Shown: one piece after another, positions 1,233-22,167 of the stretch | Numbering within the stretch: position 1 is the first letter of the stretch | Layout: every line of letters starts with the position of its first letter | Source of the DNA: an uncultured Pseudomonadota bacterium | GTDB taxonomy: Bacteria; Pseudomonadota; Gammaproteobacteria; Ga0077536 | Direction: 5' to 3' | NCBI GenBank assembly: GCA_903825645.1 | Contig: CAIKBL010000042.1 | Coordinates: 117,289-181,288, forward strand | DNA length: 64,000 nt | Program-made: the position numbers and the translations under genes | Notes under the pieces: model-generated | The model's database searches: none | What the model was told of the DNA's origin: nothing | What the model saw: the letters and a program-made list of their open reading frames with translations, nothing else

Positions 1233-1426
1233 ACATCACCTAAAAACATCGCGGCAAACAATGAAGCGGGCTTGCAGGCAGGTCTTTTACCGGTACCCGA
1301 AGGGTCCGGAATAGTGTCGCGCTCGCCGGCGCAATACAAGCGCAATTCACAGACGGCGCGCAAGAAGCCGGTTATCGGACGATGAATGAACGATAATGCG
1401 GAATATTCCTCACTGGCGCTGGCCCC

Positions 1427-3326: not shown

Positions 3327-3341
3327 CCGCGCGCCCTGACG

Positions 3342-4364
3342 CTAGCCGGCCGGATTGAACGCGGCCGCGGCGAAAACCTCAGCACCCCGCATAAATTCCG
3401 CAGCACTCGTGGCCTGCGGGCTGATGACGAGGGTATCGATGCCCTGTGCGTAGTGGGCGCGTAACTGGGCGTGGCAGTGGGCGACGGATCCAAACAGGAA
3501 AATACGGGACACCATCTCATCCGTGATGGCACGGGTGACGCGCGCCCGATCGCGCGCGGCATAGCCTGCCCGCACCTCGGCGACCGCCTCCGGGTAGCCC
3601 AGCTGTTCGATCATCGTCTGATAGACCGGTGCCGAGGCATAGAAGGCAAAATGTTGTCGGAAGAATTCACGTGCGTGGACTTCTTCTTCGGGACTGGAGA
3701 TCACGACCACCGCGCGACGTTTCACAATTTCGAGATCTTCCGCCCGACGCCCACGCCGCTTGGCCCCGAGATCAAGCTGCTCCATCGCCCAAGCCAGCCG
3801 ATCGAGGGGGGTGAAGTCATTGAGGACGACGCCATCGGCGACTTCACCGGCGAGTTGCAACATCTTCGGCCCCATCGCCCCCAGATGAATCGGTAAGGCG
3901 ACACCCGGCAGGGCCTGCAAACGAAAGCCCTCACTGCGGAGTAGCTCGCCTTTGAAATGCGTTTTTTCGCCGGCGAAAATCTGTCGCAGCAGGGCGACGT
4001 ACTCTCGCACGTGCGTCAATGGACGCTTGAAGGGTACGCCGTACCAGCGATCGACCATGTTGCTCGTGGACGAGCCCAGGCCAAGCACAAAACGGCCGGG
4101 CGCCTGCTCGGTAATCACACTGACGCCGGTAGCCAGCACCGCGGGGGGGCGATTGAACACCGGGACCACCCCGGTGCACAGCCGGATGCGGCGGGTCGAC
4201 ACCGCCAGCGCAGCCGCCAGCGAAATCGGATCTTGCATGCCCTCTGCATCCGGAAACCAGAGATCGTCAAAACCAGCGTCCTCCGCCCACCGGCCCCGGG
4301 CAAAACCCGCATCCAGACCGGGCACCGGCCACAGCATCAGACCAAGGCGTTTCGAGCGTGTCAT
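3342..4364 (-). CDS. LLM-class (luciferase-like) flavin-dependent oxidoreductase
   Basis: TIM-barrel luciferase-like N-terminus (GLMLWPVP...FDDLWFPD). About 340 aa. Start chosen at MTRSKRLGLML; the ORF extends to 4415. Confidence 0.75.
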   Translation of the reverse strand: MTRSKRLGLMLWPVPGLDAGFARGRWAEDAGFDDLWFPDAEGMQDPISLAAALAVSTRRIRLCTGVVPVFNRPPAVLATGVSVITEQAPGRFVLGLGSSTSNMVDRWYGVPFKRPLTHVREYVALLRQIFAGEKTHFKGELLRSEGFRLQALPGVALPIHLGAMGPKMLQLAGEVADGVVLNDFTPLDRLAWAMEQLDLGAKRRGRRAEDLEIVKRRAVVVISSPEEEVHAREFFRQHFAFYASAPVYQTMIEQLGYPEAVAEVRAGYAARDRARVTRAITDEMVSRIFLFGSVAHCHAQLRAHYAQGIDTLVISPQATSAAEFMRGAEVFAAAAFNPAG

Positions 4365-4431
4365 CAGGGACTCTCCCGTGGCGTGCACCGGCGCCCCTTG
4401 GCGCACCGCAGACATCGATTAAATTGAGATC

Positions 4432-5076
4432 TCAGACTACCCCAGCCGAGAATACCGACAAATCCTGCGGGCCACCGCGCTCGAGTGCCCGACGATAAGC
4501 CGGCCGCGCGCGAAGGCGCGCCAGATAGGCCTGTATGGCGGGCAACGCCTTCGTTCGACCCCGCGCCTCGCTGAATTCAAGCGACCAGCCGAGGTTGATA
4601 TCCGCCGCCGAAAAGCCGCTTGGCAGAAGGTAGGCCTGATCCGTTAACGCCGCTTCGACGTACTGATGGTTTTTGGTGATTTCGACCTCGAAGAAGCTCA
4701 TGAAAACGGCGTTGCCGCCGCCGGTCCAGGCGTAGATGAGATCAACGCCGAGCCCGGGGAACAAGGTTCCTTCCGAGAAGGCGAGCCATTGCAGATATTG
4801 GCCGTAATCGGGCGCGCTGGGCGCCCGGCTGAGGCGTCCACCGGCACACACCTGGCAGATGTATTCGATGATGGCATCGGTTTCGATGATCGTCTGCCCA
4901 TCGTGCTCAATGGTCGGCGCCTTGCCGAGGACATGCACGGCCCGCAGCGAATCCGGGGCCCGCAGTGTTTCCGCATCCCGCTGGTGGTGCACCAGCGTGT
5001 AATCGATACCGAGCTCTTCGCATAACCACACGATGCGTTGCGAACGGGAGTTATTGAGATGATGCACGGTCAGCAT
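4432..5076 (-). CDS. glutathione S-transferase
   Basis: 214 aa. Thioredoxin-like N-terminal GST domain (RSQRIVWLCEELGIDY) plus a C-terminal helical domain. Confidence 0.8.
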   Translation of the reverse strand: MLTVHHLNNSRSQRIVWLCEELGIDYTLVHHQRDAETLRAPDSLRAVHVLGKAPTIEHDGQTIIETDAIIEYICQVCAGGRLSRAPSAPDYGQYLQWLAFSEGTLFPGLGVDLIYAWTGGGNAVFMSFFEVEITKNHQYVEAALTDQAYLLPSGFSAADINLGWSLEFSEARGRTKALPAIQAYLARLRARPAYRRALERGGPQDLSVFSAGVV

Positions 5077-5105
5077 AATTTTTCCTCGAAAAAAATAAGG
5101 GTGCG

Positions 5106-6338
5106 CTAACGACGATGGGCTTTTAATTTGACCGGCAGATGTTTAAGTCCGCCGACGAACGTGGACTGCACCCGTTCGACGGGTCCGGAGATTTCGATGC
5201 CGTCATGGCGTGACAGCAGGGCTTCCAGGGCAAGCCGGATCTCCAGCTTGGCGAGCGGTCCGCCGAGACAAAAGTGCGGCCCCGCACCGAAACCCAGGTG
5301 AAGATTCGGATGCCGGGTCACATCAAAATCATAAGGCCGCGCGAACACTGCCGCGTCCCGGTTGGCCGACGGAAACCACAGCATGACCCGCTCGCCTTCG
5401 CGAATGCGTTGCCCCGCCAATTCGGTATCTGCGGTGGGCGTGCGCATCAGCGAGATGACCGGGTCCGACCAGCGGATAATTTCTTCTGCCGCGAGCCGCA
5501 GACGGCGCGGATCTTCCCGCAGCAGCGCCATTTGTGCCGGATGTTCCAGCAGCGCCAAGACGCCCCCAGAAAACGCATTGCGGGTGGTTTCAAAGCCGGC
5601 CAGGATAATCTGGGCCGCGTTGTGCGCCACCATCGAGGCGGGCAACGCCTGTGCCTCGAGGGTGGCATTGGCCAGCAGGGTGAGGGGATCCGAGCGCGGA
5701 CATCCCCGCCGCTCCGCGGCCCGCCGCAGGCCATAGGCATGGAGCTGCTCGAAGCCGTAACGCACGGTTTGTGCCACGGTGCCCTGCCGGTATTCGGGAT
5801 CGGTGCCTCCGATCGCCATTTTGCCCCAGACGAGCATGTCGTCCCAATCCTCCGCCGGCAATTCGAGGATGTCACAAATCACCGCCATCGGAATGCGCAC
5901 CGCGAGATCGGCGACCAAGTCGATTTCGCCATGAGCGGGGATGTCATCGAAGATTTTGCCGATGAGCGCCCGCGTCCGCGCCTCGCTACCGGCCAACGCC
6001 TTGGGCAGAAAAGGGGCCGAGATGACCTTGCGGACGGCCGTATGCCGGGGCGCATCAATCATGGCGACGTTCTGACCCACCCCCCAGGCCTCTGCCGCGA
6101 TCGCCGCCATCTCGGCGTCTATCACGGGCGCCACGCCTTCGCGTTCAGAACTGAACAGATTCGGCGCGTTCAGGATGGTTTTCAGATCCGCGTGGCGGAA
6201 GATGGACCAGTAACCTCGACCATCGGGGCTCTGCGTCCAGTGGATCGGATCTTCGGCGCGTAGGCGGTCAAACAACGCGTAATGCGCGCCGGTGGCAAAA
6301 AACGCCGGATCGTTCAGCTTCTCGTCGACGTTTATCAC
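5106..6338 (-). CDS. cytochrome P450 monooxygenase (paralogue A)
   Basis: 410 aa. FGAGPHFCLGGPLAKLE heme-binding loop. N-terminal 190 aa nearly colinear with the P450 at 40310..41563. Confidence 0.9.
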   Translation of the reverse strand: MINVDEKLNDPAFFATGAHYALFDRLRAEDPIHWTQSPDGRGYWSIFRHADLKTILNAPNLFSSEREGVAPVIDAEMAAIAAEAWGVGQNVAMIDAPRHTAVRKVISAPFLPKALAGSEARTRALIGKIFDDIPAHGEIDLVADLAVRIPMAVICDILELPAEDWDDMLVWGKMAIGGTDPEYRQGTVAQTVRYGFEQLHAYGLRRAAERRGCPRSDPLTLLANATLEAQALPASMVAHNAAQIILAGFETTRNAFSGGVLALLEHPAQMALLREDPRRLRLAAEEIIRWSDPVISLMRTPTADTELAGQRIREGERVMLWFPSANRDAAVFARPYDFDVTRHPNLHLGFGAGPHFCLGGPLAKLEIRLALEALLSRHDGIEISGPVERVQSTFVGGLKHLPVKLKAHRR

Positions 6339-6424: not shown

Positions 6425-6444
6425 GATTTGTCCGAACAAGTTGA
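6425..6444. promoter_or_regulatory. GntR/FadR-type operator-like palindrome GATTTGTCCGAACAAGTTGA
   Basis: TTGTCCGAACAA near-palindrome (the core on which the GT-N-AC FadR/GntR-type consensus is read) in the divergent P450/GntR intergenic region. A near-identical site lies at 11218..11238. Confidence 0.45.
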
Positions 6445-6534
6445 CTTGTGGCGGACGTGATCCCGCCACGCGGGTGCGTGATGGGCGGCCTCGCGCCGCC
6501 CCCCTCTTCTCGTTGTTCGGACAGGAGCCTGCCC

Positions 6535-7323
6535 ATGTCGACGTCACCGCCGGCCGCGTCCATCACCACCCCAACACCGCGCCGGCGTGGCGCATCGAAA
6601 CACAGTACGGTGGCGGCGCAACTCCTCGAGCAGATCCGATCAGGGCATTTCCCACCTGGCGCACGCCTACCCTCGGAGCCTGACCTGTGTCGCCACTTTG
6701 GCGTAAGCCGACACACCGTCCGAAGCGCCTTACGTTCCCTCTATGAGAAGGGCCTTGTGCTGAGTCAGCAAGGCCGCGGAACCGTCGTCCAAACCGCCGC
6801 GGCGACGCCGCGCTATGCCTTCGCCTGTAACTCGGTTGACGATCTCCTCCAATATGCCGCAGCGGCCCCGCGCGAACTTCGCCAAACGAGTCGGCGCCAG
6901 GTCGATCCGGCGCTTGCCCAATGGCTGGGTTGCGGGCCGGGCGAGGACTGGTGGGAAATGCGGACCTGCCGGATCGAAAAACAAGGCCAGACGGTCATTG
7001 CGGCCTCCCGCATCTACGTGCCCGATCGCTTCGCGGAGGCCGTGGCCGAGCTCGCCACCAGTCCGTTGCCGCTGTTTGCTCTGATCGAACAACGCTACGG
7101 TCATCACATCGCACAGGTTCGGCAGAATTTTTCAGTGGCCCACGCGACCCCGGACGAAGCCACTGATCTCGGGCTGACGGTCGGCGCGGCAGTGATGTGC
7201 GTCGAACGCCGTTTCTTCGACGAGCGTGGCAGCCTGCTGGAAGTGTCCTGTTCGGTCCATCCGCCGCTCGGGTTTCGCTACGAAATGACCGTGCGCCAAA
7301 TCATCGGTCAGGGTAGCGCCTGA
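6535..7323 (+). CDS. GntR/HutC-family transcriptional regulator (wHTH plus UTRA effector domain)
   Basis: N-terminal GntR helix-turn-helix (PSEPDLCRHFGVSRHTVRSALRSL) followed by a UTRA-like C-terminal domain. Start set at MSTSPP within ORF 6448..7323. Confidence 0.75.
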   Translation: MSTSPPAASITTPTPRRRGASKHSTVAAQLLEQIRSGHFPPGARLPSEPDLCRHFGVSRHTVRSALRSLYEKGLVLSQQGRGTVVQTAAATPRYAFACNSVDDLLQYAAAAPRELRQTSRRQVDPALAQWLGCGPGEDWWEMRTCRIEKQGQTVIAASRIYVPDRFAEAVAELATSPLPLFALIEQRYGHHIAQVRQNFSVAHATPDEATDLGLTVGAAVMCVERRFFDERGSLLEVSCSVHPPLGFRYEMTVRQIIGQGSA

Positions 7324-7353: not shown

Positions 7354-10300
7354 CTAGGCCTCGGCGGCGCGGGCTAACGCCTCGCCGAGATCGAGCGAAC
7401 CATAGCCCAACGTCCGCTCGAGATCGTGCCAGACCGGCAAGGCAGCCCGCAGGGCCGCCTGCTTCACATGACCAAAGCCCCGAATGCTGTCCACCACCTG
7501 CGCCAGACTGACCAGCTGGGAGTAGCTCGCTGGGGTCAGGTGTTGCAAGCCCATTTCAATCGACTGCCGGTAGGCTTCAATCAGACGCCGCTCCAACTTG
7601 CGCTCTGCCGTATAGCCGAAGGGATCGAAGGGTGTCCCCCGGAGACCTTTAAAGTGCTGTAACACCTGTAGCACCGGGCGCAACCAGGGGCCAAACGCCT
7701 GCTTCTGGGGCCGCCCCGCCGCATCGCGGCGCCCCAGTAGCGGGGGCGCAAGGTGAAAATTAAGCTTCGGGCTCCCCCCAAACGCGGTGTTCAGTTGCTG
7801 CTGAAAGGCCGGGAGGGAAAAAAGCCGCGCCACCTCATACTCATCCTTGTAGGCAAGCACCCGGTAGTACCCTTCCGCCACCGCCTGCGTCAGGGCATAG
7901 TCCTGCGCCGCGCTATCGCGCTGGCGCACCGTCTCCACCAATTGACGGAAGCGGTTGGCGTAACCCCGGTGCTGATAGGCGCAAAGCCGTGTCGCCAAGG
8001 CCTCCACGCGGTCTTGCAGCCGCGTCAGCGGATCGACCGCCGCGGCCGCCTCGGTCTCGGCGGTCACTGCGAGGGCGTCAACGCGCGCCACCGCGGCCCG
8101 ACGACCCAACGTAAAGGCCTGAATATTGTCCTTGACCGCCACACCATTCAGATCAATGGCCCGCAGCAAAGCGCGGGCACTGAGCGGAATGTGGCCGCGC
8201 TGAAAGGCAAACCCCAGCAGTAGCAGATTCCCGCTCTGGGTATTGCCCAGCAAAGATTCCGCCAGATCGGTGCTATCGAGCGCGGTATAGCGACCACTGA
8301 CTGCGGTGGTCAGCAAGTCGACGAGCTCAGCCCGGGGAAACGTCCATTCGCGATCCTGCGCAAAAGCCCCGGTCGGTTGCTCGAAGGTGTTGACCACCGC
8401 GACCGTGCGATCGGCATGGATGCGGGCGACGACTTCGGGATCGCCCGCCGTGATGAGATCATAGGCGAGCAACAGATCGGCTTCGCCGGCGGCGATACGC
8501 TGGCCGCGCAGATGGGTGTCATCATCGGCAATGCGGATGTGGGACATCACCGCGCCGTTCTTCTGGGACATGCCGGTCATATCGAGCACGCTGACTCGCT
8601 TGCCCTCCAGATGGGCCGCCATGCCGAGCAAGGCGCCGACGGTAATCACGCCGCTGCCGCCGACCCCGGTGACCAGGATATTGAAGGGGCGCGGGAGTGT
8701 CGGCACGGGCGGCTCTGGGAGCTCAATTTCCGCGCTCAGTACCGACACGTCGGCGCGCCGCCGCGCCGGGGTTTCGACCTCGACGGTCACAAAGCTAGGG
8801 CAAAATCCCTCGACGCAGGAAAGATCGCCATTACACGCATCCTGATCGATGGCCCGCTTACGTCCCAATGTCGTCTCGAGCGGCAGGATTGCCGTGCAGT
8901 TCGACGCCCGACCACAGTCCCCGCAGCCCTCGCAGATCTCGGGATTGATAAACACCCGGCGAGGCGCTTTAGGAAACTGTCCCTGTTTGCGTCGGCGCCG
9001 CTTCTCGGCCGCGCAGGTCTGATCGTAAACCAGCACGCTGACCCCGGGATAATCCCGCAAGGTCTGCTGCACCGCCTCGAGCTCGGTGCGGTCATGCACG
9101 GTCACCAGCGGGGCTGACATCGCCTGCGCACGGTGCGGCGCTGGGTTTTCGGCCACGACCGCGATTCGGCGCACCCCTTCGGCCGCCACCTGATGGACGA
9201 TGTCGCGCACCGATAGCGGGCCGTCAATCGGTTGTCCGCCCGTCATAGCGACCGCATCGTTGAATAGAATTTTGTAGGTAATGTTGACCCCGGCGGCGAC
9301 CGCCGCCCGGATCGCGAGACTCCCTGAATGGTAGTAAGTCCCGTCGCCGAGGTTCGCGAAGACATGCTCAAGCGTGGAGAAGGGAGCCTGTCCGATCCAG
9401 GTCACCCCTTCACCCCCCATCTGGGTCATGGTCCGGTTCGACTCAGGGAAGATGGCGGTCGCCATCACGTGGCAGCCAATCCCAGCCAGCGCAATGCTGC
9501 CCTCGGGTGTTCGCGTCGAACGGTTATGGGGACAGCCCGCGCAGTAGTAAGCGGATCGCGGCGGGGGCTTAAAGGTATGCACCAAGGCCGCCTCCTTGGC
9601 TTCCAGAAAATGGAGCCGGGCCGTGATGGCGTCACTGTGGTGAAAACGCTGTAGGCGATTGGCCAGCACCCGGGCTATCTGCGCAATCGAAAAATCGCCC
9701 TTCGCCGGCAGCAGCCATTCCCCACGGGGGGCCACCCACTCGCCGTGCTCGTCGAATTTTCCGATCACCCGCGGGCGCACATCGTCGCGCCAGTTGTAGA
9801 GCTGCTCTTTCAGTTGATATTCAATAAGCTGGCGTTTTTCCTCCACCACCACGATTTCTTCGAGTCCAGTGGCGAATTCACGGATGCTCTCCGCTTCCAG
9901 TGGCCAAGGCATCGAGACCTTGAACAGCCGAAGCCCGATCTGCTGGGCCGCGCGCTCGTCGATGCCGAGCTCTTCCAGTGCCTCGAGCACATCCACATAC
10001 GACTTGCCGGAGGCTACGACGCCGAGGCGGGCCGGCCGCGAATTCCACACAATCCGATTGAGATGATTCTCCCGGGCGTAGGCGAGCGCCGCATAGATTT
10101 TAAAATCCTGCATCAGCGCTTCCTGCTGGCGTGCCTGCCGCCCCAGGGGCTCGTTCGAGAGGCGCGCGTTCAGGCCTTGTGGCGGCAAATTCGGATAATC
10201 GGGGAACCGTGTCTCGACGAGGAAGGGATCCGCACTCACGCTCGCAGAGGACTCGACGGTATCGGCCAGCGCCTTGAACCCCACGGCACACCCGGAGAAG

Positions 10301-10878
10301 CGAGACATCGCCCAGGCATGCAGGCCGAGGGTCAGGTATTCGTGCACATCGCATGGATACAGCACCGGAATCATCGCAGCGGCGAACTGGTGATCGCTCT
10401 GGTGGGGCAGGGTCGAGGAGTAGGCCCCATGATCATCACCGGCCACGAGGATCACCCCGCCGTGGCGCGAGGTACCGGCATGATTCAGGTGTTTGAACAC
10501 ATCGCCGCAGCGATCAACGCCGGGCCCCTTGCCGTACCACAAAGCGAAAACGCCGTCATAACGGGCCGGTCCCAGCAGGGCGACTTGCTGGGTGCCCCAC
10601 ACGGCCGTCGCGGCAAGCTCTTCGTTCACGGCGGGCCAGAACTTGATGTGGTGCCGACCGAGATGGGGAGCGGCTTTCCAGGCGGCCTTGTCGAGCCCGC
10701 CGAGCGGTGAGCCGCGGTAGCCGGAAATAAAGCCGGCCGTATTGAGGCCGTCGGCGACGTCGCGCAGGCGCTGCAAGATCGGCAAGCGAATGAGCGCTTG
10801 CACGCCGCTGAGGTAAATTCTGCCCGCCGTTGCGGTGTACTTATCGTCAAGCGTCAGATGTGGGTCGATGACCGACAT
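7354..10878 (-). CDS. indolepyruvate ferredoxin oxidoreductase family protein (fused alpha/beta 2-oxoacid:ferredoxin oxidoreductase)
   Basis: 1174 aa. TPP/pyrimidine-binding N-terminal region, ferredoxin-like CxxCxxCxxxC (CEGCGDCGRASNC), C-terminal IorB-like region. Confidence 0.85.
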   Translation of the reverse strand: MSVIDPHLTLDDKYTATAGRIYLSGVQALIRLPILQRLRDVADGLNTAGFISGYRGSPLGGLDKAAWKAAPHLGRHHIKFWPAVNEELAATAVWGTQQVALLGPARYDGVFALWYGKGPGVDRCGDVFKHLNHAGTSRHGGVILVAGDDHGAYSSTLPHQSDHQFAAAMIPVLYPCDVHEYLTLGLHAWAMSRFSGCAVGFKALADTVESSASVSADPFLVETRFPDYPNLPPQGLNARLSNEPLGRQARQQEALMQDFKIYAALAYARENHLNRIVWNSRPARLGVVASGKSYVDVLEALEELGIDERAAQQIGLRLFKVSMPWPLEAESIREFATGLEEIVVVEEKRQLIEYQLKEQLYNWRDDVRPRVIGKFDEHGEWVAPRGEWLLPAKGDFSIAQIARVLANRLQRFHHSDAITARLHFLEAKEAALVHTFKPPPRSAYYCAGCPHNRSTRTPEGSIALAGIGCHVMATAIFPESNRTMTQMGGEGVTWIGQAPFSTLEHVFANLGDGTYYHSGSLAIRAAVAAGVNITYKILFNDAVAMTGGQPIDGPLSVRDIVHQVAAEGVRRIAVVAENPAPHRAQAMSAPLVTVHDRTELEAVQQTLRDYPGVSVLVYDQTCAAEKRRRRKQGQFPKAPRRVFINPEICEGCGDCGRASNCTAILPLETTLGRKRAIDQDACNGDLSCVEGFCPSFVTVEVETPARRRADVSVLSAEIELPEPPVPTLPRPFNILVTGVGGSGVITVGALLGMAAHLEGKRVSVLDMTGMSQKNGAVMSHIRIADDDTHLRGQRIAAGEADLLLAYDLITAGDPEVVARIHADRTVAVVNTFEQPTGAFAQDREWTFPRAELVDLLTTAVSGRYTALDSTDLAESLLGNTQSGNLLLLGFAFQRGHIPLSARALLRAIDLNGVAVKDNIQAFTLGRRAAVARVDALAVTAETEAAAAVDPLTRLQDRVEALATRLCAYQHRGYANRFRQLVETVRQRDSAAQDYALTQAVAEGYYRVLAYKDEYEVARLFSLPAFQQQLNTAFGGSPKLNFHLAPPLLGRRDAAGRPQKQAFGPWLRPVLQVLQHFKGLRGTPFDPFGYTAERKLERRLIEAYRQSIEMGLQHLTPASYSQLVSLAQVVDSIRGFGHVKQAALRAALPVWHDLERTLGYGSLDLGEALARAAEA

Positions 10879-11217
10879 GGGAGTTCTCCAAAATTGTGTT
10901 CTGGGTGGAGCAGGCGAAGAGCATCGGGTGGATGCTCGCCAGCCTCGGGCGTTCAGATCTTCGGATAGAAAATCGTCGCGCGGGGTCGATTGCCCTCGGC
11001 GGTAGGCGCGGGGTGATCGAAGGGGCCAACACGTTAATAAAGAGACACGGTCTTGCTGGGCAAATCACCTCCGGAGTAAAGCATGCGGCCGACATCCGGG
11101 CCATCGATGGCAGAGTATCGCAGGCGCTCCGGTTCGTACAACGTGGAAACCCGCCGTGGGGACCGCGAAACGCCAGCAGCCGGCATCAGCTGCGGCGATC
11201 GCCGCCGGCCCCAGCTT

Positions 11218-11238
11218 GATTTGTCCGGACAAGATCGG
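11218..11238. promoter_or_regulatory. GntR/FadR-type operator-like perfect palindrome GATTTGTCCGGACAAGATCGG
   Basis: TTGTCCGGACAA perfect 12-bp palindrome about 130 bp upstream of the citryl-CoA-lyase-like gene, between divergent genes. Matches the site at 6425. Confidence 0.45.
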
Positions 11239-11364
11239 GCATTCTCGCGCCAGCCGTCAGGGCCTCCCGAACTTCACTCAACTCCCGCGCGCGCCGCCGC
11301 CAGGCGATCTCGCGCCCCGCCGTGCGGGCGCCGCACCGCTGGCCAGACCACAGGAACTACTCGC

Positions 11365-12132
11365 ATGTATAAAAAAGCCAATCCGGTCACCCGTCTGTGC
11401 ACGAGCGACGTCGATAACATCTTGATCCGAGGTAGAAATCTGTGTGACGAGCTGATCGGGAAAGTGACGTTTACCGATTTCATTCTGTTTCATTTCTTCG
11501 GTAAAGATCCGACTCCCATGCAGCGTACGATTGTGGACGCGGTCATGGTGTGCATCATGGAGCACGGCATGACTCCCTCCGCCGTTGCCACGCGCATCAC
11601 CTACCTCGGCGCCCCCGAATCGCTCCAGGGCGCAGTGGCCGCCGGACTCCTCGGCGCCGGGACGCGGTTCGTCGGCGCGGCCGATGAAGCCGCTAAACTC
11701 CTCACGCGCATCACCGCCCAGCCGCTCGCCGCGCGGGCCGCGGAAGCCGCCGCAATCGCACAGGAATACACCGCTGCCAAGAAATTCCTGCCGGGTTATG
11801 GTCACCCGATTCACGTCAACGGCGATCCGCGCGTGACCCGACTCAACGCAGTGGCGCGTGCGGCCGGCGCCCAGGGCGACTATCTCGATGCCATGTTTCT
11901 GCTCGGGGACGCCATCAAGGTCGCCAGCGGTAAAAATATCGTGATCAACGTCAATGCCGCGATCGGCGCCGTGCTGCTCGAAGCCGGGATCCCGCCCAGT
12001 ATCGCGCGCGGTTTCAATCTCATCGCCCGTTGTGCCGGTCTGGTCGGTCACCTGCTGGAAGAGCAGGAAGAGCCGGCCGGCTACCACATCTGGCAACTGG
12101 CGGACGAAGGCGTGCCCTACGAGGCACCCTGA
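11365..12132 (+). CDS. citryl-CoA lyase / citrate-synthase-like small domain protein
   Basis: About 255 aa from MYKKANPV. The GYGHPIH motif resembles the citrate synthase / ATP-citrate-lyase C-terminal fold. Upstream part of ORF 11083 is an Arg-rich GC artefact. Confidence 0.6.
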   Translation: MYKKANPVTRLCTSDVDNILIRGRNLCDELIGKVTFTDFILFHFFGKDPTPMQRTIVDAVMVCIMEHGMTPSAVATRITYLGAPESLQGAVAAGLLGAGTRFVGAADEAAKLLTRITAQPLAARAAEAAAIAQEYTAAKKFLPGYGHPIHVNGDPRVTRLNAVARAAGAQGDYLDAMFLLGDAIKVASGKNIVINVNAAIGAVLLEAGIPPSIARGFNLIARCAGLVGHLLEEQEEPAGYHIWQLADEGVPYEAP

Positions 12133-12181
12133 TCGCGCGCGCCCATTCTTGCCTTACGACGGCCCTCGGAGTAACCACACC

Positions 12182-14494
12182 ATGACCCAGACCAAAACGT
12201 CACCTGAACACCAGGAACTCGAAACCATGCTGCGCGACAGCGCCGCCGACTTTTGCGCACGGGCGCTGAAGCGGGAGCGTCTGCGGGCGCTCCGCGGGGC
12301 GGCCCCCGCCTATGATCGGGCACTCTGGCGCCAAATGGCCGAACTCGGCTGGACCGAAATTTTGGTCCCCGCCACACAGGGCGGCCTCGGTCTCGGCGTG
12401 ACGGCCATTGCCGTGGTGTCCCGCAAGCTGGGCAGCGTCATCGCCCCGGAGCCGCTGCTCGAAACCGCGGTGGCGGCCGTGAGCGTGCTCTGCAGTCTGG
12501 GCGATCCGAGTCCGTGTCTGCCCGCCCTGACCGCCGGCACGCACGTGATCGTACCCGCCCTCGGCCAGGTCGGCGGGGACGCTTTTGCCGCCCTACACGC
12601 CACCGCGGTCGATCAATCGCATACCTTGGACGGCACCGTGACGGCACTGCCTCTGGGTCCGGACGCCGATCAGTGGTTGCTGCCAGCAACGCTGGCCGGG
12701 CAGCCGGCCTGGTTCCTCGTCAGCGCCCAGGCCCCCGGCGCCCACTGCGTCTCCCGAGAACTGGCCGACGGCAGCCGGGACGGCCATCTCACCCTGACCG
12801 CGTGCGCCGCCCAACTGCTCGGGCACGGCGAGCCTGCCCGCGCCGCGCTGGCGCTTGCCCGCACCCGAGTTGAAATCGCCTCCGGCGCCTATCTGCTCGG
12901 GCTGGCGGAAACGCTGTTCGCCATGACGCTCGATTATGTCGGGACCCGCCGCCAGTTCGGACAGGCCATCGGCAGCTTCCAGGTGCTGCAACACCGACTG
13001 GTCGACTTGTATATCGGGCTGCGGCTCACGGATGCGGTGCTCTCCGAGAGCTGTGCCACCATCGCGGAGGGGGCGGATGCACAAACCGCCGCCAGTCGCC
13101 TGCGGTACCGCGCCTGCGAAACCACCCTGGCGGTTATCCGGGAGGCCGTACAGATGCACGGCGCCATGGGCTACACCGACGAATGCGATGTCGGGCTCTA
13201 TCTGAACCGGGCGCTGGTGGTGATCACCCGTTACGGCAATGCCCGCGAACACGTCGCCGCGCTATCCGGCAACGGCACCCTACTCGCCGGGAGCGCGCAA
13301 GGGGCGGTCCTCCCCACGGTCAACATCAACTGCGCGACCCCCTCCGACGGTTGGAACAGTCTCGACAACGACACCTTCAGAGCGATCGTGCGCGGTTGGC
13401 ACGAAACACACTATCCGAGCGCGCTGCGCAATCCGCGCTCGCGCCCCCGCTGGACGCAATGCCGCGACTGGTATGCCACCCTGTATGCGCGCGGCTGGGC
13501 CGCGCCGGGCTGGCCGGCCGAGCATGGCGGGATGGGGCTCAGTCCAGACAAGCTCCTCATCTTCATCGAAGAGCGAGAACGCTGGGGGGTGGCGCGCACG
13601 CCGGATCAAGGGATCGTCATGGTCGGGCCGGTGTTAATGCAGCACGGCACGCCCACACAGCTCGCGCAGTATCTCCCCAAAGCCTTAAGCGGCGAGCACA
13701 TCTGGTGTCAGGGTTACTCGGAGCCGAACGCCGGATCTGACTTGGCCTCGTTGCGCACGAGCGCCGTGCGGGAAGGCGACGAATTCGTCATCAATGGACA
13801 GAAGATCTGGACCACCATGGCGCAAGATGCGACCCATATGTTCTGCCTGGTGCGAACCGATCCCCAAGCCAAACCCCAGCGGGGAATAAGCTTCGTGCTC
13901 ATCGACTTCAAGAGCCCGGGGATCACGGTGCGCCCCATCCGCAACATCTCGGGAGATTCGGAATTCTGCGAAGTCTTTCTCGACAATGTCCGCATCCCGG
14001 TCGACAGCGTAGTCGGCGCGCTGCATGACGGCTGGACCATTGCCAAAGCCTTGCTGGGCTTCGAGCGCCTGTTCATCGGCAGCCCCAAATATGGCCAGTA
14101 CGCATTGAACCGGCTACGCAGTCTTGCCGCGGCCCGCGGCCTGCTGGCCGATCCGGTGTTCGTCGACAAACTCACGCGCTTCACGTTGGACGTCGCTGAT
14201 CTGGAGGCCCTGTACAAGGTATTTGCGGACGTCGTAAAGCGCGGCGAGACCCTCGGTGCGGATGTCTCAACGCTCAAAATCTGGGCCAGTGAAACTTTTG
14301 CGCGGCTCAGCGAATTTCTGATCGAATCCGCCGGCCAGATGGGCGCCCAAGTGGGCGACATTGCGTTCGGGGACACTACTGTCGATGTGATGACGCAGTA
14401 TTGGAACGCGCGACCCACGACCATCTATGGCGGCAGTAACGAAATCCAGCGGAACATCATCGCCAAGCAGGTGTTGCGGCTGCCGGCGAATTAG
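12182..14494 (+). CDS. tandem-fused acyl-CoA dehydrogenase (two complete ACAD folds in one 770-aa polypeptide)
   Basis: First half 1-390 and second half 390-770 each contain ACAD N-alpha, beta-barrel and C-alpha domains (e.g. QGYSEPNAGSDLASL, FVINGQKIWTT, IYGGSNEIQRNIIA). Start ATG preceded by GGAG. Confidence 0.8.
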   Translation: MTQTKTSPEHQELETMLRDSAADFCARALKRERLRALRGAAPAYDRALWRQMAELGWTEILVPATQGGLGLGVTAIAVVSRKLGSVIAPEPLLETAVAAVSVLCSLGDPSPCLPALTAGTHVIVPALGQVGGDAFAALHATAVDQSHTLDGTVTALPLGPDADQWLLPATLAGQPAWFLVSAQAPGAHCVSRELADGSRDGHLTLTACAAQLLGHGEPARAALALARTRVEIASGAYLLGLAETLFAMTLDYVGTRRQFGQAIGSFQVLQHRLVDLYIGLRLTDAVLSESCATIAEGADAQTAASRLRYRACETTLAVIREAVQMHGAMGYTDECDVGLYLNRALVVITRYGNAREHVAALSGNGTLLAGSAQGAVLPTVNINCATPSDGWNSLDNDTFRAIVRGWHETHYPSALRNPRSRPRWTQCRDWYATLYARGWAAPGWPAEHGGMGLSPDKLLIFIEERERWGVARTPDQGIVMVGPVLMQHGTPTQLAQYLPKALSGEHIWCQGYSEPNAGSDLASLRTSAVREGDEFVINGQKIWTTMAQDATHMFCLVRTDPQAKPQRGISFVLIDFKSPGITVRPIRNISGDSEFCEVFLDNVRIPVDSVVGALHDGWTIAKALLGFERLFIGSPKYGQYALNRLRSLAAARGLLADPVFVDKLTRFTLDVADLEALYKVFADVVKRGETLGADVSTLKIWASETFARLSEFLIESAGQMGAQVGDIAFGDTTVDVMTQYWNARPTTIYGGSNEIQRNIIAKQVLRLPAN

Positions 14495-14583: not shown

Positions 14584-15825
14584 TTATCGGTAGTGGGGCA
14601 TGACCTCGCGGCCAAAGCGCTCCAACATCCGCTTCATGTCATCCATCGGCAAGTAGCCTTGATCCGACTGCCAGATGAACCATTCTGGGTTCGCGGTCTC
14701 CACCAGCAAGTCCATTTCCTTGCGCACATCTTTTTCATTCCCGACCAAGCAGAAATGGGATTTTTCGAAGCGCTCCATCGTCGCTTCCGATACCGGCAAG
14801 GGCTGGTTCGGGAAGTTGATGTCATCCTCAGGCAACCGGAAGGCGTCGGTGAAACCGAAGTCGTGCGCCCAGCCCGGCCAGCCCGTGCCCATCAAGCCTT
14901 TCATGGCCAGATCGCGCGCCTGCTGACGGGTGTCGGCCATGTAGACGCCCCGGAACACCCCAAAGTTCTCGCCAAGGGCGAGCGCGCGACCATGCAGGGC
15001 GGCCTCTTCGACATGGACCTCGGCAAAACGCCGCAAAATCGCCGGATCGGAGGTCAACACCGTCGGGATTGAGCCTTCCTTCGCCGCCCAGCGGATGGTG
15101 CTTTCGCTCTGGGAGAATGCCTGGAAAAGTGGCGGATGCGGCTTCTGGTAGGGCTTCGGCACCACATCAATCAGCTGGATGTTGCCAGCATCATCGACTT
15201 CCCCTGGCGAGCCGTATTTACGGGTCCAGTTGTGCGCCGGCCACGGGGTCCCGGTCTCGTAGGGATAAGGATATTCGTAGTACTTGCCCTTATAGCGGAA
15301 ACCGCCGTCTTTCCAGGCCAGCTTGATGATGTCAAAGACTTCCTGAAACGCTTCGCGGTTCACCGCATCATTGGTCGGTTGGCTTTCCTTGGTATTCATG
15401 GCGGCCGCACCGACGTGCAGATGTTGGGCCATCTGGTTCAGCCAGCGCGCCTGGTAACCCCGGGCGAAGCCGACAATCGTGCGTCCCTTGGTGATTTGAT
15501 CAAGCCAGGCGATTTCCAGGGCGAGTCGCAGTGGATCCCAACCCGCGAGGACATAGCCGATCGGACCGGCCTTGATAGTTTTGGTGTTGGCCAGAACATG
15601 CTGCGTCAGCAGCGGCAGGCTGCCCATTTCACCGCCCTCGGTGTGCAGGTGATGTTCGGGATAGGTCACTGCGGTGAAGCCGAGATCTTCGGCCATCTGC
15701 GAGAGCTCGACGACCTCGTCGAGCATCTGTTGGAACTTGTCCGTGCGACTGGCAATGGGGCGCAGTTTTTCACGCTCGTCCAGGGTTGCCGGAATCGCCG
15801 GGTAGAAGAAAAAAACAAATTTCAT
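14584..15825 (-). CDS. LLM-class flavin-dependent oxidoreductase
   Basis: 413 aa luciferase-like monooxygenase fold (TAVTYPEHHLHTEGG...). Confidence 0.8.
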   Translation of the reverse strand: MKFVFFFYPAIPATLDEREKLRPIASRTDKFQQMLDEVVELSQMAEDLGFTAVTYPEHHLHTEGGEMGSLPLLTQHVLANTKTIKAGPIGYVLAGWDPLRLALEIAWLDQITKGRTIVGFARGYQARWLNQMAQHLHVGAAAMNTKESQPTNDAVNREAFQEVFDIIKLAWKDGGFRYKGKYYEYPYPYETGTPWPAHNWTRKYGSPGEVDDAGNIQLIDVVPKPYQKPHPPLFQAFSQSESTIRWAAKEGSIPTVLTSDPAILRRFAEVHVEEAALHGRALALGENFGVFRGVYMADTRQQARDLAMKGLMGTGWPGWAHDFGFTDAFRLPEDDINFPNQPLPVSEATMERFEKSHFCLVGNEKDVRKEMDLLVETANPEWFIWQSDQGYLPMDDMKRMLERFGREVMPHYR

Positions 15826-16268
15826 CGACAGTCTCCAGTTGGGCGGGGGATCGCCACGCGCTGTTGGTTTCGGGACTCGGCAAAAACCTCGAAACCATGT
15901 AACCGGTCACCGAGGCGATGGCAGAGACGTGACACTTCACGAATTTTTCGGGCAACATTGTCGCAAGATACGGAAGGAAGTACACGCCGCAAAATAGCGG
16001 CCTCTGCGCCGGACCGTAACCAAGGAGGCTGCCCGTAATCACCGGGATGTTCAGGCGCGCCACGCGGAAGTGGCCGGCGACACGTCAAAGTGCAGCGCCG
16101 CGCCCCTAAATGCCCTAAAATCTTTGCGCCCACCGGTCTGCCCTCCCACGAGGAGATCACCGGAGAGGGGATGGCAAGCCCGTCCGCGCCGGGCACGGAA
16201 AAACACCGCGTGCGCCTGACGCGGACTACCCGACCCGGCAATCCCGGGCGGCAAGCCAAGAGGTTCAC

Positions 16269-18107
16269 ATGAATCAAGACCCCGCGCGGCCCGCGGTCGA
16301 CAACATCACTTATGGCGACGTCGCCTCCGTCTCGGGCGCACCCCTGTCGGCGATCCGCGAGGAAGACCGCGGACACGCTAAGCGCGGCGCGCAAATTCTC
16401 GCCGCGGCCCTGCGTGCCGAAGGCGTCGAATGTCTGTTCGGTTATCCGGGCGGCGCCAATCTCGAAATCTTCGATGTGCTGTCCGAATTCGGCATCCTGT
16501 GTTACCGCACCGAACACGAGCAGGGCGCCATTCATGCGGCCCAGGGCTACGCGCGCGCCACCGGTCGGGTCGGCGTGTGTCTCGCGACCTCTGGCCCCGG
16601 CGCCTGCAATCTAGTCACGGGTCTTGCCGATGCGAAAAGTGACTCGACGCCTATTGTCGCCATCACCGGCAACGTCCCCAGCTACCTCCTCGGCAAAAAT
16701 GCCTTCCAGGAGGCTGACATCGTCGGCATCACGCGGCTGATCACCAAGATCAGCATTCTGGTCGGCAGTGTGGCCGAGATCCCGGCGGCCGTGCGCAAAG
16801 GGTTTGCGCACGCCGTCATCAATCGCCCCGGGCCGGTGCTGATTGATCTCCCCAAAGACATCCAGCAGCATTTTCCACGCGATCCCGAAGGCCGTTATGT
16901 CCCACCTCGGATCCCGGCGGTGATCGATTCACCCGAAGTCGTGGTGGGCGCCATTCCAGAGTCCCAGCTGAAGCAATGCTTGCGCATGATCGCCGAAGCC
17001 GAGCGCCCCGTGATCTATGCCGGTGGTGGCATCGTCTCGAGCGGCACGGAAGCACGCCTCGTCGCCCTCGCGGACAAACTCGGCTGCCCGGTGACCACGA
17101 CGATCATGGGCTTGGGCGCGGTGCCTTCCGACCACCCCCTGTGGTTACATGTGCTGGGCATGCACGGCAGCTACACCGCGAATGTGGCCGTCAACGAGGC
17201 CGATCTGGTGATCGCCCTGGGTGTGCGGTTTGACGATCGCGTGACGGGCAACGTGAAGGAATTCATCAAGGATGGCCAGATCATCCATATCGACGTCGAT
17301 CGCGCCGAACTTAATAAGAATAAGGGCGTGACGCTCGGCATCGCGGCCGATCTCAGCACGGCCCTCGAACAGTTGATCGAGGCCGCCGTGCCCGGCGACT
17401 ACGCCGCATGGCGGCGACGCCTCGAGGCGATGAAAGCGCAATACCCGCTCAAGGCCCGCACCCGCGAAATCCTCGGCGGGCCGGCGGCCATCGAGCTGCT
17501 CTCGGATATGACGGCGGGTGACGCGCTGGTGACCGTCGGCGTCGGACAACACCAGATGTGGGCCATGCAGCACTACGCCATCAATCGCCGGCGCTCCTTC
17601 CTGTCCAGCTCCGGCTTCGGCACCATGGGCTACGGGCTGCCCGCCGCCATCGGCGCCAAGGTGGGCTGTCCAGATCGGCTCGTCATCGATATCGACGGCG
17701 ACGGCAGCCTCAACATGAGCATTCACGAGCTCTCCACCTGCCACCGTTATGGCATTGGCGTGAAAATCGTGTGCATCAATAACCAGTGGCTGGGGATGGT
17801 GCGTCAGTGGCAGGACATGATCTATTCGGGACACCGGGCTAATTCCTCGCTCGGCGATCCGATGGCGGTGAAGGCCGTCAGCGATGACGACATTTATCCC
17901 GATTTCGTGACCATTGCGGCCGGTTACCGAATCAAGGCCGAACGCGTCAGCACGGCGCGCGATCTGCCGGCGGCCTACGCACGCCTGCTGGCCGATCCGC
18001 AGGAGCCCTATCTGCTCGATGTCATTGTCGATCGCGAGCAGAACGTCTACCCGATGATTCCGGCGGGCGGCAGCTATCGCGACATCATTCTGGAAGGCGA
18101 CGGTTAA
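16269..18107 (+). CDS. thiamine-pyrophosphate enzyme of the acetolactate synthase (ALS) large-subunit family
   Basis: 612 aa. Pyr domain (GYPGGANLEIFD, TSGPGACNLVTGLADA), central domain and PP domain with TPP GDG...N motif (DGDGSLNMSIHEL). Confidence 0.85.
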   Translation: MNQDPARPAVDNITYGDVASVSGAPLSAIREEDRGHAKRGAQILAAALRAEGVECLFGYPGGANLEIFDVLSEFGILCYRTEHEQGAIHAAQGYARATGRVGVCLATSGPGACNLVTGLADAKSDSTPIVAITGNVPSYLLGKNAFQEADIVGITRLITKISILVGSVAEIPAAVRKGFAHAVINRPGPVLIDLPKDIQQHFPRDPEGRYVPPRIPAVIDSPEVVVGAIPESQLKQCLRMIAEAERPVIYAGGGIVSSGTEARLVALADKLGCPVTTTIMGLGAVPSDHPLWLHVLGMHGSYTANVAVNEADLVIALGVRFDDRVTGNVKEFIKDGQIIHIDVDRAELNKNKGVTLGIAADLSTALEQLIEAAVPGDYAAWRRRLEAMKAQYPLKARTREILGGPAAIELLSDMTAGDALVTVGVGQHQMWAMQHYAINRRRSFLSSSGFGTMGYGLPAAIGAKVGCPDRLVIDIDGDGSLNMSIHELSTCHRYGIGVKIVCINNQWLGMVRQWQDMIYSGHRANSSLGDPMAVKAVSDDDIYPDFVTIAAGYRIKAERVSTARDLPAAYARLLADPQEPYLLDVIVDREQNVYPMIPAGGSYRDIILEGDG

Positions 18108-19780: not shown

Positions 19781-19802
19781 CCCACAAGACCGGCGCCAAG
19801 GC

Positions 19803-20561: not shown

Positions 20562-20592
20562 CTCGGATTAGTTATTTCGGAAAAGCCGCGCC

Positions 20593-22140: not shown

Positions 22141-22167
22141 GGTGAAACGCTCCTCGCGGGTCGTGGA

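Follow-up and report, generated by a model that had tools for sequence, protein, structure and literature searches.

A fused beta-alpha acyl-CoA dehydrogenase encoded next to a citryl-CoA-lyase-like gene in an uncultured gammaproteobacterial lineage

Gene content of the locus

We analyzed a 64,000-nt stretch of DNA from an uncultured Pseudomonadota bacterium, hereafter the window (contig CAIKBL010000042.1 of assembly GCA_903825645.1, positions 117,289 to 181,288). On its plus strand, the gene for a 255-aa citryl-CoA-lyase-like (CCL-like) protein of the citrate synthase fold (11365..12132; NF004868, 6hxp_A) is followed after 49 bp by that of a 770-aa fused beta-alpha acyl-CoA dehydrogenase (ACAD; 12182..14494), identified by Pfam, NCBIfam, PDB search, and an AlphaFold model. 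We infer that these two genes form an operon (11365..14494), the CCL-like gene coming first. Divergent from it on the minus strand, across a 487-bp intergenic region that holds a palindrome, lies the gene for a 1174-aa fused protein of the indolepyruvate/2-oxoacid:ferredoxin oxidoreductase (IOR) family (7354..10878; NF009588 and domain matches). The plus strand further encodes a GntR/HutC-type regulator with GntR HTH and UTRA domains (6535..7323) and a 612-aa acetolactate synthase (AHAS) large-subunit-like ThDP/FAD enzyme (16269..18107; TIGR00118).

The three genes described in the first-pass annotation (IOR family, CCL-like, and ACAD) are all present, with one start codon corrected: the long ORF 11083..12132 was rejected as the CCL-like gene, whose real start is the ATG at 11365. 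The ACAD gene is nested in a longer ORF (11954..14494) and has a GGAG ribosome-binding site before its start. For the GntR gene, the mechanical ORF begins at 6448, but the ATG at 6535, which has an AGGAG ribosome-binding site before it, is the probable start.

Two complete acyl-CoA dehydrogenase folds in one chain

The ACAD gene is a single uninterrupted reading frame whose translation has zero internal stops. Pfam finds Acyl-CoA_dh_N and Acyl-CoA_dh_1 twice each, while Acyl-CoA_dh_M is found once, in the C half, and not in the N half. NCBIfam places PimD_small on residues 40-366 and PimC_large on residues 395-766. The AlphaFold model (pLDDT 88.9, pTM 0.90) contains two complete alpha-beta-alpha ACAD folds, and its top Foldseek matches are 6wy8/6wy9 (Tcur3481/Tcur3483) and 4x28 (ChsE4-ChsE5). 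The linker between the folds (residues about 364-395; 13274..13366, plus strand) is a low-confidence coil without secondary structure; 10-residue blocks over 361-380 have a pLDDT of 63-68, and values fall below 50 at 371-374. Pfam, NCBIfam, and AlphaFold thereby bear out the earlier proposal of two tandem complete ACAD folds, and the second half is an ACAD by its matches to PimC_large, Tcur3483, and ChsE4.

Separate alpha and beta gene pairs do occur in other genomes (L029, L034), as would be expected if a frameshift, an overlooked stop codon, or a chimera in the assembly had artificially joined two neighboring ACAD genes. We give this practically no chance. The translation is free of stops, the same 770-aa protein recurs in independent samples, contigs of three separate samples share an identical gene arrangement, and more than 100 full-length homologues measure 750-800 aa, which together refute an assembly origin; moreover, the unfused pairs run alpha then beta, the reverse of the window fusion.

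The two halves differ in motifs and conservation

The N half (residues 1 to about 364; 12182..13273, plus strand) is a beta-type and predicted non-catalytic ACAD fold, with beta subunits as its best PDB sequence matches (Tcur3481, E = 3e-32, and ChsE5). The C half (residues about 396-770; 13367..14491, plus strand) is of the alpha type and predicted to be catalytic; it matches the alpha subunits Tcur3483 (E = 7.5e-48) and ChsE4 (2.9e-43), as well as TIGR03204 PimC_large (288 bits over residues 395-766). As first noted, the MCAD-type Glu of the canonical YEG is missing in both halves: the N half has Gly at this position (YGN, 351-353) and the C half reads YGG (749-751). The N half also carries Thr at the IVD Glu position (LARTRVE, 225-231) and lacks a catalytic Glu as well as FAD motifs of its own, in agreement with the suggestion that one half may be non-catalytic. 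A base at the IVD/LCAD-type position, also suggested at the time, finds a good candidate in Glu628 (GFER, residues 626-629; codon 14063..14065, plus strand), which is invariant among 50 homologues (alignment A1) and aligns to the ER of ChsE4 "LNHERV", the IVD/ChsE4 position. From position only, we predict Glu628 to be the catalytic base of the C half.

An intact reading frame, both folds, and an asymmetric retention and conservation of motifs characterize this protein. In the 50-sequence alignment A1, the C half has about 100 invariant positions, E628, SEPxxGSD, and KxWTT included, and the N half about 31, concentrated in RxxFG and QxHGxxG. The cis FAD motifs of the C half, QGYSEPNAGSD (510-520) and KIWTT (541-545), are invariant or nearly so. 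The N half keeps the RxxFG and QxHGxxGY motifs as TRRQFG (255-260) and QMHGAMGY (324-331), with R256, F259, G260, Q324, H326, G327, and G330 invariant. By analogy with known ACAD structures, these two motifs may be trans contacts to the partner FAD, and it is from the motifs and the pTM only that an FAD interface within the chain is suggested.

Proposed mechanism and substrate class

We propose that the 770-aa product is an intramolecular counterpart of the alpha-beta heterodimer in alpha2beta2 acyl-CoA dehydrogenases. The C half would hold FAD via its own middle domain and use Glu628 as the catalytic base, while the N half, having lost its own FAD site and base, would complete the C-half FAD site through RxxFG and QxHGxxGY. 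With the site shared in this way and the N half lacking a site or base of its own, each chain would have one FAD and one active site. Chains would then dimerize to mimic the alpha2beta2 tetramer, convert acyl-CoA to 2-enoyl-CoA, and pass the electrons to ETF. Enzymes of this class have one enlarged pocket, which, together with the PimCD-like and ChsE-like affinities, suggests bulky or carboxylated acyl-CoAs as the substrate class. In the window, genes for ETF, an enoyl-CoA hydratase, or an acyl-CoA ligase/transferase are absent next to the CCL-ACAD operon. In a 45%-identical clade, the ACAD gene is found between those of a family III CoA-transferase and an enoyl-CoA hydratase, a context that fits ordinary acyl-CoA catabolism.

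Among solved structures, the nearest ones come from steroid ACADs, and the domain order and placement of the catalytic residue are as reported for CasC (PMC8399759). The protein could accordingly be seen as a true orthologue of ChsE3 (FadE34) or CasC that acts on the CoA ester of a C5 steroid or bile-acid side chain; several family members are named "3-oxochol-4-en-24-oyl-CoA dehydrogenase" by JGI, and the window is rich in P450s and encodes a type-1 thiolase-like protein and a Baeyer-Villiger-type monooxygenase. We nevertheless find such orthology very unlikely. The JGI names are automatic transfers and not functions from tests, the halves have their best NCBIfam matches in PimC and PimD, whose substrates are dicarboxylyl-CoAs, and the conserved partners, the CCL-like and AHAS-like proteins, lie outside known steroid pathways. 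In addition, no KstD, KshA, HsaA-D, ChsH/Ltp2 hydratase-aldolase, or FadD19-type ligase is present among the ORFs examined in the window and its relatives.

The CCL-like gene is the tighter partner of the ACAD

Against NF004868 (cutoff 193), the CCL-like protein reaches 306 bits, and among PDB entries it is matched best by 6hxp_A (E = 1e-29, over 215 residues). The earlier description of a citrate-synthase-fold lyase-like protein therefore stands as regards fold and family, but not as regards the active site, where NVN aligns to the NVD of the true lyase and the catalytic Asp is gone. NVN is found in 6/6 syntenic homologues, and family alignment A2 has Asn or Ser throughout at the Asp position, so the name should not be taken as the function. 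In the same alignment, H67, H147, R156, and R222 are invariant; by position, we take them to be His274, His320, Arg329, and Arg401 of citrate synthase. Members of a sister CCL-like subfamily are encoded 3' of a PaaK-like CoA ligase in three loci.

The CCL-like/ACAD pair is kept in seven of the ten informative loci, with identities across loci of 78-90% for the CCL-like protein versus 64-74% for the ACAD. The IOR gene adjoins the ACAD in just three of the ten, and such adjacency is confined to the window, its two closest relatives, L001 and L002, and the window-identical contigs, which makes the CCL-like gene the tighter partner. L003 and L006 have no IOR gene there; the CCL-like and ACAD genes come directly after the GntR gene. 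The IOR-family protein itself is a full-length match to NF009588 (1550 bits, cutoff 952) with TPP_enzyme_C, POR, and DUF6537 domains; our literature search found no paper mentioning DUF6537.

A palindrome, TTGTCCGRACAA, occurs both at the GntR gene and at the CCL-ACAD promoter and recurs 5' of the CCL-like gene in relatives. A perfect copy, the candidate GntR operator TTGTCCGGACAA (11221..11232), lies 133 bp upstream of the CCL-like start, and a motif scan located TTGTCCGAACAA (6428..6439) between the divergent P450 and GntR genes and TTGTTCGGACAG (6513..6524) directly before the GntR ribosome-binding site. Allowing up to one mismatch, there are five strand-matches versus 0.47 expected, a count reached by 0/100 shuffles. 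The site keeps its position 5' of the CCL-like gene in L002 and L006 and is degenerate in L001. A promoter scan returned no sigma-70-like site. From these sites, the nearby HutC-type GntR is the probable repressor of the CCL-ACAD operon, with TTGTCCGRACAA as its candidate operator.

The first-pass annotation had linked these genes into a route from 2-oxoacid to acyl-CoA to enoyl-CoA, in which IOR makes the acyl-CoA and the ACAD desaturates it, both under a shared GntR operator. Enzymes of the 2-oxoacid:ferredoxin oxidoreductase family do yield acyl-CoA, the two divergent units have the palindrome-bearing intergenic region in common, and the arrangement is retained in L001, L002, and the window-identical contigs. 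However, adjacency was the sole basis for the route, and it is limited to three of the ten loci and absent in L003 and L006. As for the shared operator, the palindrome is there, but L006 keeps it 5' of the CCL-like gene without IOR, and in the window it lies 343 bp from the IOR start versus 133 bp from the CCL-like start. While the pathway reading of the module is partly supported, we consider a joint IOR-ACAD route unlikely.

The AHAS-like protein (625.6 bits against TIGR00118, cutoff 538) figures in another conceivable pathway. Its gene is found downstream of orthologous fused ACADs in 6/7 loci, and the protein is 78-85% identical and encoded adjacent or nearly so in L001, L003, L004, L038, and L039/L040. 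The CCL-ACAD genes could serve a route for beta-branched 3-carboxy-acyl-CoAs, such as alkylsuccinyl-CoA: the ACAD would form a 2-enoyl-CoA, hydration would give a citryl-CoA-like tertiary alcohol, the CCL-like protein would split this into acetyl-CoA and a 2-oxoacid, and the neighboring ThDP enzymes (AHAS-like or IOR-family) would use up the 2-oxoacid. The tight pairing of the two genes and the higher conservation of the CCL-like protein speak for this scheme, as do its four invariant His and Arg residues, the action of both recurrent neighbors on 2-oxoacids, the PimCD-like affinity, which points to carboxylated acyl-CoAs, and the PaaK-like ligase preceding the sister subfamily. Yet the entire scheme is derived from chemistry, and we see it as a long shot. 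The Asn or Ser found family-wide at the position of citrate synthase Asp375, the NVD Asp of the Hydrogenobacter thermophilus enzyme, argues against efficient Claisen or retro-Claisen chemistry, the operon encodes no hydratase, and the AHAS adjacency could be gene order inherited within one lineage.

Altogether, the best explanation, which we hold to be likely, is a GntR-repressed CCL-like/ACAD operon whose product is an intrachain alpha-beta ACAD that desaturates an acyl-CoA.

Comparison with known systems

FadE34 is about 711 aa long, a length not seen in any of the 150 top representatives of 50%-identity clusters for our ACAD. Fused proteins make up 98 of these 150, 75 in the beta-alpha order of the window and 23 in the reverse order. 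Bacterial steroid degradation already offers examples of the double-ACAD layout, which is common in environmental Proteobacteria; with these counts and its publication for CasC (PMC8399759), the module can no longer be called unusual, as it had been.

Like the H. thermophilus citryl-CoA lyase (6hxp), the CCL-like protein keeps both catalytic His, along with two Arg that by position match the citrate-binding arginines. It differs by the Asn in place of the NVD Asp (Asn or Ser family-wide) and by its context, next to an ACAD instead of a citryl-CoA synthetase. The IOR-family protein resembles the PRK13029/PRK13030 fused proteins, with IOR-alpha-like, IOR-beta-like, and DUF6537 regions.

The kinship first proposed, to alpha2beta2 ChsE/FadE enzymes and the fused FadE34 type, is borne out by the matches of the halves to ChsE5 and ChsE4 and by the CasC-like layout. 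CasC of Rhodococcus jostii RHA1 and FadE34/ChsE3 of Mycobacterium tuberculosis are fused double ACADs that act as steroid side-chain dehydrogenases. CasC has its catalytic Glu in the C-terminal domain alone and depends on the N-terminal domain for FAD binding (PMC8399759). The window protein is like them in having two ACAD domains per chain, Glu only in the C-terminal one, and an N-terminal domain that would serve FAD binding, and unlike them in coming from an uncultured gammaproteobacterial lineage without steroid-pathway context. Since no sequence of FadE34 length appears among the 150 best representatives, we regard the window protein, set beside CasC and FadE34 by description and length, as only distantly related to them, and the fusion may be independent.

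PimC/PimD pimeloyl-CoA dehydrogenase (TIGR03204/TIGR03203) gives the best NCBIfam match for each half, but the scores of 288 and 120 bits stay far under the equivalog cutoffs, 624 and 653. PimC and PimD come from separate genes, and related pairs that are not fused run large then small.

The closest parallels in sequence and fold are the alpha2beta2 enzymes ChsE4-ChsE5 (4x28) and Tcur3483-Tcur3481 (6wy8/6wy9), at just 26-30% identity, with the C half corresponding to alpha and the N half to beta. Whereas their subunits are separate polypeptides, the halves in the window are covalently joined in beta-alpha order through a linker some 30 residues long. Enzymes of this type have the Glu in one subunit only and one FAD at each alpha-beta interface (PMC8399759), and the same one Glu and one FAD per alpha-beta pair would be expected of the fused chain.

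Gene content of the module

All three genes that the first-pass annotation had placed in the module were recovered as open reading frames (ORFs) with matches to family models. The gene at 7354..10878 (-) encodes a 1174-aa protein matched over its full length by NF009588, at 1550 bits where the cutoff is 952. Pfam adds TPP_enzyme_C, POR and DUF6537, and the translation shows two Cys-rich ferredoxin-like motifs; these matches assign its predicted product to the fused indolepyruvate/2-oxoacid:ferredoxin oxidoreductase (IOR) family. On the other strand, the gene at 11365..12132 (+) encodes a 255-aa citryl-CoA-lyase-like (CCL-like) protein of the citrate-synthase fold, which passes the cutoff of 193 bits for the NCBIfam "citryl-CoA lyase" subfamily model NF004868 with 306 bits. 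The ORF itself (11083..12132, +) is longer than the real gene, homology beginning at ATG 11365. Directly downstream, at 12182..14494 (+), a GGAG ribosome-binding site precedes the 770 codons of the fused acyl-CoA dehydrogenase (ACAD); this frame contains no internal stop, which disposes of the earlier concern that two genes with an overlooked stop between them had been read as one. Literature searches on the fused IOR/DUF6537 family and on clusters of CCL-like and ACAD genes returned nothing relevant, and a promoter and terminator scan gave nothing informative.

Further downstream lies an acetolactate-synthase large-subunit-like (AHAS-like) gene (16269..18107, +; TIGR00118, 625.6 bits against a cutoff of 538). 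A 237-aa ORF (orf237; 15822..16535, -) overlaps its 5' end, has no family matches and was rejected; it is probably not a gene, since in relatives the only similarity of its N-terminus is to the AHAS 5' end read in antisense.

The window carries an unusually high density of genes for oxygenases and acyl-CoA enzymes (33..6338, 14584..15825, 18536..29913, 39884..41563 and 53445..54539). Its oxygenases are four P450s, four luciferase-like monooxygenases, a Baeyer-Villiger-type flavin monooxygenase and a nitronate monooxygenase, and it also encodes a GST, a type-1 thiolase-like protein, a 388-aa standard ACAD, an AMP-forming ligase and a family III CoA-transferase.

Two divergent ACAD folds in one chain

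The 770-aa protein had been described as a tandem pair of complete ACAD folds, and Pfam, NCBIfam, PDB matches, an AlphaFold2 model and Foldseek all agree with this description. Pfam detects the N- and C-terminal ACAD domains twice each, whereas its single match to the middle domain lies in the C half. NCBIfam places the small subunit PimD at residues 40-366 and the large subunit PimC at 395-766, with scores far below the equivalog cutoffs (PimC, TIGR03204, 288.5 against 623.85; PimD, TIGR03203, 120.1 against 652.7). The best PDB sequence matches of the C half are Tcur3483 (E = 7.5e-48) and ChsE4 (2.9e-43), which are alpha subunits of solved alpha2beta2 steroid ACADs, while those of the N half, Tcur3481 (3e-32) and ChsE5 (4e-23), are beta subunits of the same enzymes. 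An AlphaFold2 model computed from a 50-sequence alignment (mean pLDDT 88.9, pTM 0.90) contains two complete helix-sheet-helix ACAD folds (residues 8-363 and 396-764) with a linker of low confidence between them, and Foldseek against the PDB ranks 6wy8/6wy9 and 4x28 at the top, with TM-scores to the targets of 0.85-0.88. As modelled, each half has the helical N-terminal, middle beta and helical C-terminal domains of the ACAD superfamily.

The two halves share only 25% identity over 97 residues, which rules out a recent tandem duplication; they are ancient paralogues. The same divergence argues against the fusion being an artefact of assembly or annotation, such as a missed stop or a chimera. 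As an identical protein with the same gene arrangement is found on contigs from separate samples, and hundreds of homologues are 750-800 aa long, we regard an artefact as excluded.

The halves have retained complementary motifs. YGN (351-353) and YGG (749-751) are present in the translation as the first-pass annotation had reported, and therefore the MCAD-type Glu is absent from both halves. That annotation had proposed that the base may lie elsewhere, as in IVD/LCAD-type enzymes, or that one half may be non-catalytic, and the alignments favor both proposals, each for a different half. In the C half, GFER (626-629) lines up with "LNHERV" of ChsE4, placing E628 at the ChsE4/IVD position, and E628 and R629 are invariant across 50 homologues. 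In the N half, which has Gly at the MCAD position, "LARTRVE" aligns to "LDYERV" of an IVD homologue, so that a Thr sits where the base would be. Two cis FAD motifs, SEPxxGSD and KxWTT, occur in the C half only, as QGYSEPNAGSD (510-520) and KIWTT (541-545), and are invariant or nearly so in the 50 homologues. Conversely, RxxFG and QxHGxxGY, which in canonical ACADs touch the flavin of the neighboring subunit, are lost from the C half and retained in the N half as TRRQFG (255-260) and QMHGAMGY (324-331), where R256, F259, G260, Q324, H326, G327 and G330 are invariant in the 50 homologues. Across this 50-sequence alignment, about 31 positions are invariant in the N half against roughly 100 in the C half. 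From these residues, the C half looks catalytic and the N half looks non-catalytic.

Fused ACADs are abundant and occur in both orders

A word-indexed search scored 8000 candidates, of which 389 proteins reached E <= 1e-10; the best 120 listed are nearly all 750-810 aa long and come mostly from uncultured Gammaproteobacteria. We also searched 1.84 billion cluster representatives exhaustively with HMMER and obtained 4294 proteins at E <= 1e-30. The best 150 of these comprise 75 fused beta-alpha proteins, the order of the 770-aa ACAD, 23 fused in the alpha-beta order (P0285, P0287, P0290 and 20 other representatives, with Saccharopolyspora among the sources), 30 single alpha subunits and 22 fragments. 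Unfused pairs found in genomes are encoded alpha then beta (loci L029 and L034). Given these counts and the two fusion orders, the architecture is abundant, and the fusion probably arose more than once. The module can therefore no longer be called unusual on account of its double ACAD, an architecture that was already known. The value of the present analysis is mainly corrective: the double ACAD is no curiosity but one of a large proteobacterial family, mostly unstudied so far, in which alpha and beta units are covalently fused in either order.

In the complete genome of Ramlibacter terrae H242 (CP053418.1; L035 8001-10242), the homologue of the fused ACAD matches only as four separate pieces, which suggests sequencing-error frameshifts or a pseudogene.

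Gene neighborhoods in relatives

We compared ten informative loci with orthologues at 62-74% identity (the window, L001-L006, L026, L038 and L039/L040). The CCL-like gene lies directly upstream of the ACAD gene in seven of them (the window, L001, L002, L003, L005, L006 and L026), and its product is 78-90% identical across these seven, exceeding the conservation of the ACAD. An AHAS-like gene (78-85% identical) lies downstream of the ACAD gene in 6/7 loci extending far enough. It abuts the ACAD gene in L003 (10348-12186), L038 (8761-10593) and L039/L040 (L039 10573-12411), with no AHAS small-subunit gene seen beside it in L038 or L039/L040. A luciferase-like monooxygenase gene lies between the two in the window and L004, and ~3.6 kb separate them in L001, with only a fragmentary monooxygenase-gene match inside. 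A GntR gene adjoins the module in three loci, the window, L003 and L006; in L003 and L006 it stands immediately ahead of the CCL-like and ACAD genes, in the same orientation. Several of the metagenome-assembled genome records matched here (L001, L011, L018, L022, L024, L025 and L032) bear the title "Klebsiella pneumoniae" or "Bordetella parapertussis", which is doubtful in view of what genes they contain and of their environmental origin; the organism names given there are not to be relied on.

The IOR-family gene adjoins the ACAD module only in the window, L001 and L002 among the ten loci, and the link is confined to one lineage. The first-pass annotation had read the module as a route in which the IOR-family enzyme feeds the ACAD. 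Such a route is possible in this lineage, but it has adjacency as its sole basis and we regard it as rather unlikely. Overall, what that annotation observed is confirmed, and its interpretation is supported in part.

More distant fused ACADs have other neighbors. In a paralogous clade (L041, L042 and L043; 56-58% identity), the ACAD gene lies beside an enoyl-CoA hydratase gene, which in L042 and L043 is divergent from it, with a three-subunit xanthine-dehydrogenase/CO-dehydrogenase-type molybdoenzyme downstream. Both paralogues occur together in the genome from which L003 and L043 come. In a Burkholderiales clade (45% identity), a family III CoA-transferase gene and an enoyl-CoA hydratase gene flank the ACAD gene, with TctC-type receptors alongside. 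Judging from these contexts, members of the family behave like ordinary catabolic ACADs that were recruited into acid-degradation cassettes of various kinds.

The CCL-like partner lacks the catalytic Asp

The best solved relative of the CCL-like protein is the citryl-CoA lyase of Hydrogenobacter thermophilus (6hxp_A, E = 1e-29). In the alignment, "lvlNVDgaia" of 6hxp_A faces "ivinVNaaig", and the catalytic Asp is therefore replaced by Asn. While citrate synthase and true citryl-CoA lyase have Asp (NVD), the CCL-like protein has NVN, as do 6/6 syntenic homologues (L001, L002, L003, L005, L006 and L026), and the position is Asn or Ser in 15/15 family members aligned, down to 53% identity. H67, H147, R156 and R222 are invariant in the same 15-member alignment. 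The catalytic triad of citryl-CoA lyase (two His and the NVD Asp) is thus present only in part, with both His kept and the Asp changed to Asn, and by its residues the protein is not a canonical citryl-CoA lyase.

A distant subfamily of the protein has "NAS" at the Asp position, and its gene comes after genes for a GST and a PaaK-like CoA ligase at three loci (L046 5934-8771, L047 3953-6768 and L048 2976-5829). In L047 and L048, a P450 and a glyoxalase-fold protein precede the GST and ligase, and a branched-chain-type ABC transporter follows; the arrangement in L046-L048 looks like an uncharacterized acid-CoA catabolic cassette. We compared the GST and P450 beside this subfamily with those of the window, and they are not orthologous.

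The Asp-less CCL-like protein and the fused ACAD, as a conserved pair of enzymes, might make up, together with the recurrent 2-oxoacid-using ThDP enzymes (AHAS-like or IOR-family), an aerobic route, as yet undescribed, for acyl-CoAs that are beta-branched or carry a 3-carboxy group. In such a route, a lyase homologue with a non-canonical catalytic set would cleave or otherwise process a citryl-CoA-like intermediate, and the ThDP enzymes would act at the end. The scheme is chemically coherent and would account for the recurrent partner genes, but it is improbable given that the CCL-like protein lacks the catalytic Asp and a hydratase is missing. Of the loose ends in the region, the tight and highly conserved pairing of the CCL-like protein with the ACAD is the most interesting.

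A candidate GntR operator

The palindrome TTGTCCGRACAA is a candidate operator for the GntR regulator. Allowing at most one mismatch, it gives 5 strand-matches against 0.47 expected, a count that none of 100 shuffles reached; with two mismatches allowed, matches are at chance level (14 observed against 12.8 expected). We counted only three sites as operator copies: one at 6428, where the P450 and GntR genes diverge, one at 6513, just ahead of the GntR ribosome-binding site, and a third at 11221, a perfect palindrome that precedes the CCL-like start by 133 bp. The mechanically called GntR ORF starts at GTG 6448, but an in-frame ATG at 6535 is preceded by AGGAG and is the probable true start, since family matches begin ~20 residues after it. 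With this start, the second copy falls over the ribosome-binding-site region.

Intergenic alignment shows that the palindrome, as TTGAtTTGTCCGGACAAG, keeps its position ahead of the CCL-like gene in both L002 and L006, and L006 has a further copy upstream of its GntR gene. In L001, TTGAtTTGTCCGGACAAG is degenerate and no GntR gene stands in the expected position next to the IOR-family gene. The shared GntR operator proposed for the whole module is hence real as a sequence feature, but the palindrome belongs to the GntR autoregulatory region and the promoter of the CCL-like and ACAD genes, whether or not the IOR-family gene is present. We infer that the GntR regulator binds it.

Altogether, the explanation we favor, and consider likely, is that the GntR regulator would control a two-gene operon whose products are the CCL-like protein and a beta-alpha ACAD contained in one chain; the ACAD would desaturate some bulky or carboxylated acyl-CoA. 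With its Asp-less CCL-like partner, clean palindromic operator and regulator of the HutC type, the system offers a tractable way to the substrate of this ACAD clade.

Comparison with known alpha-beta ACADs

The 770-aa ACAD shares the layout of CasC/FadE34 (ChsE3), a single chain with two ACAD domains and a C-terminal catalytic Glu, as compared with the description in PMC8399759. Its architecture would fit a ChsE3/CasC orthologue acting on steroid side chains, and family members do bear the name "3-oxochol-4-en-24-oyl-CoA dehydrogenase". That name was assigned automatically by JGI, and neither it nor "citryl-CoA lyase" for the partner should be trusted as a function. The gene context does not fit either: among the ORFs examined, no steroid or bile-acid side-chain cluster surrounds the fused ACAD in the window or in the neighborhoods of its relatives, where the neighbors are the CCL-like and AHAS-like proteins, the GntR regulator, the IOR-family protein, luciferase-like monooxygenases and P450s. 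Such orthology is therefore very doubtful.

In alpha2beta2 ACADs, the Glu is found in one subunit only and each alpha-beta interface holds one FAD, and in CasC two ACAD domains are fused (PMC8399759). The fused ACAD likewise appears to have its catalytic Glu in one unit only, and we conclude that it is a covalently linked beta-alpha ACAD. Each chain would carry one FAD and one active site, and chains would probably dimerize. The pattern of retained motifs in the fused ACAD matches the published account of alpha2beta2 ACADs and CasC (PMC8399759).
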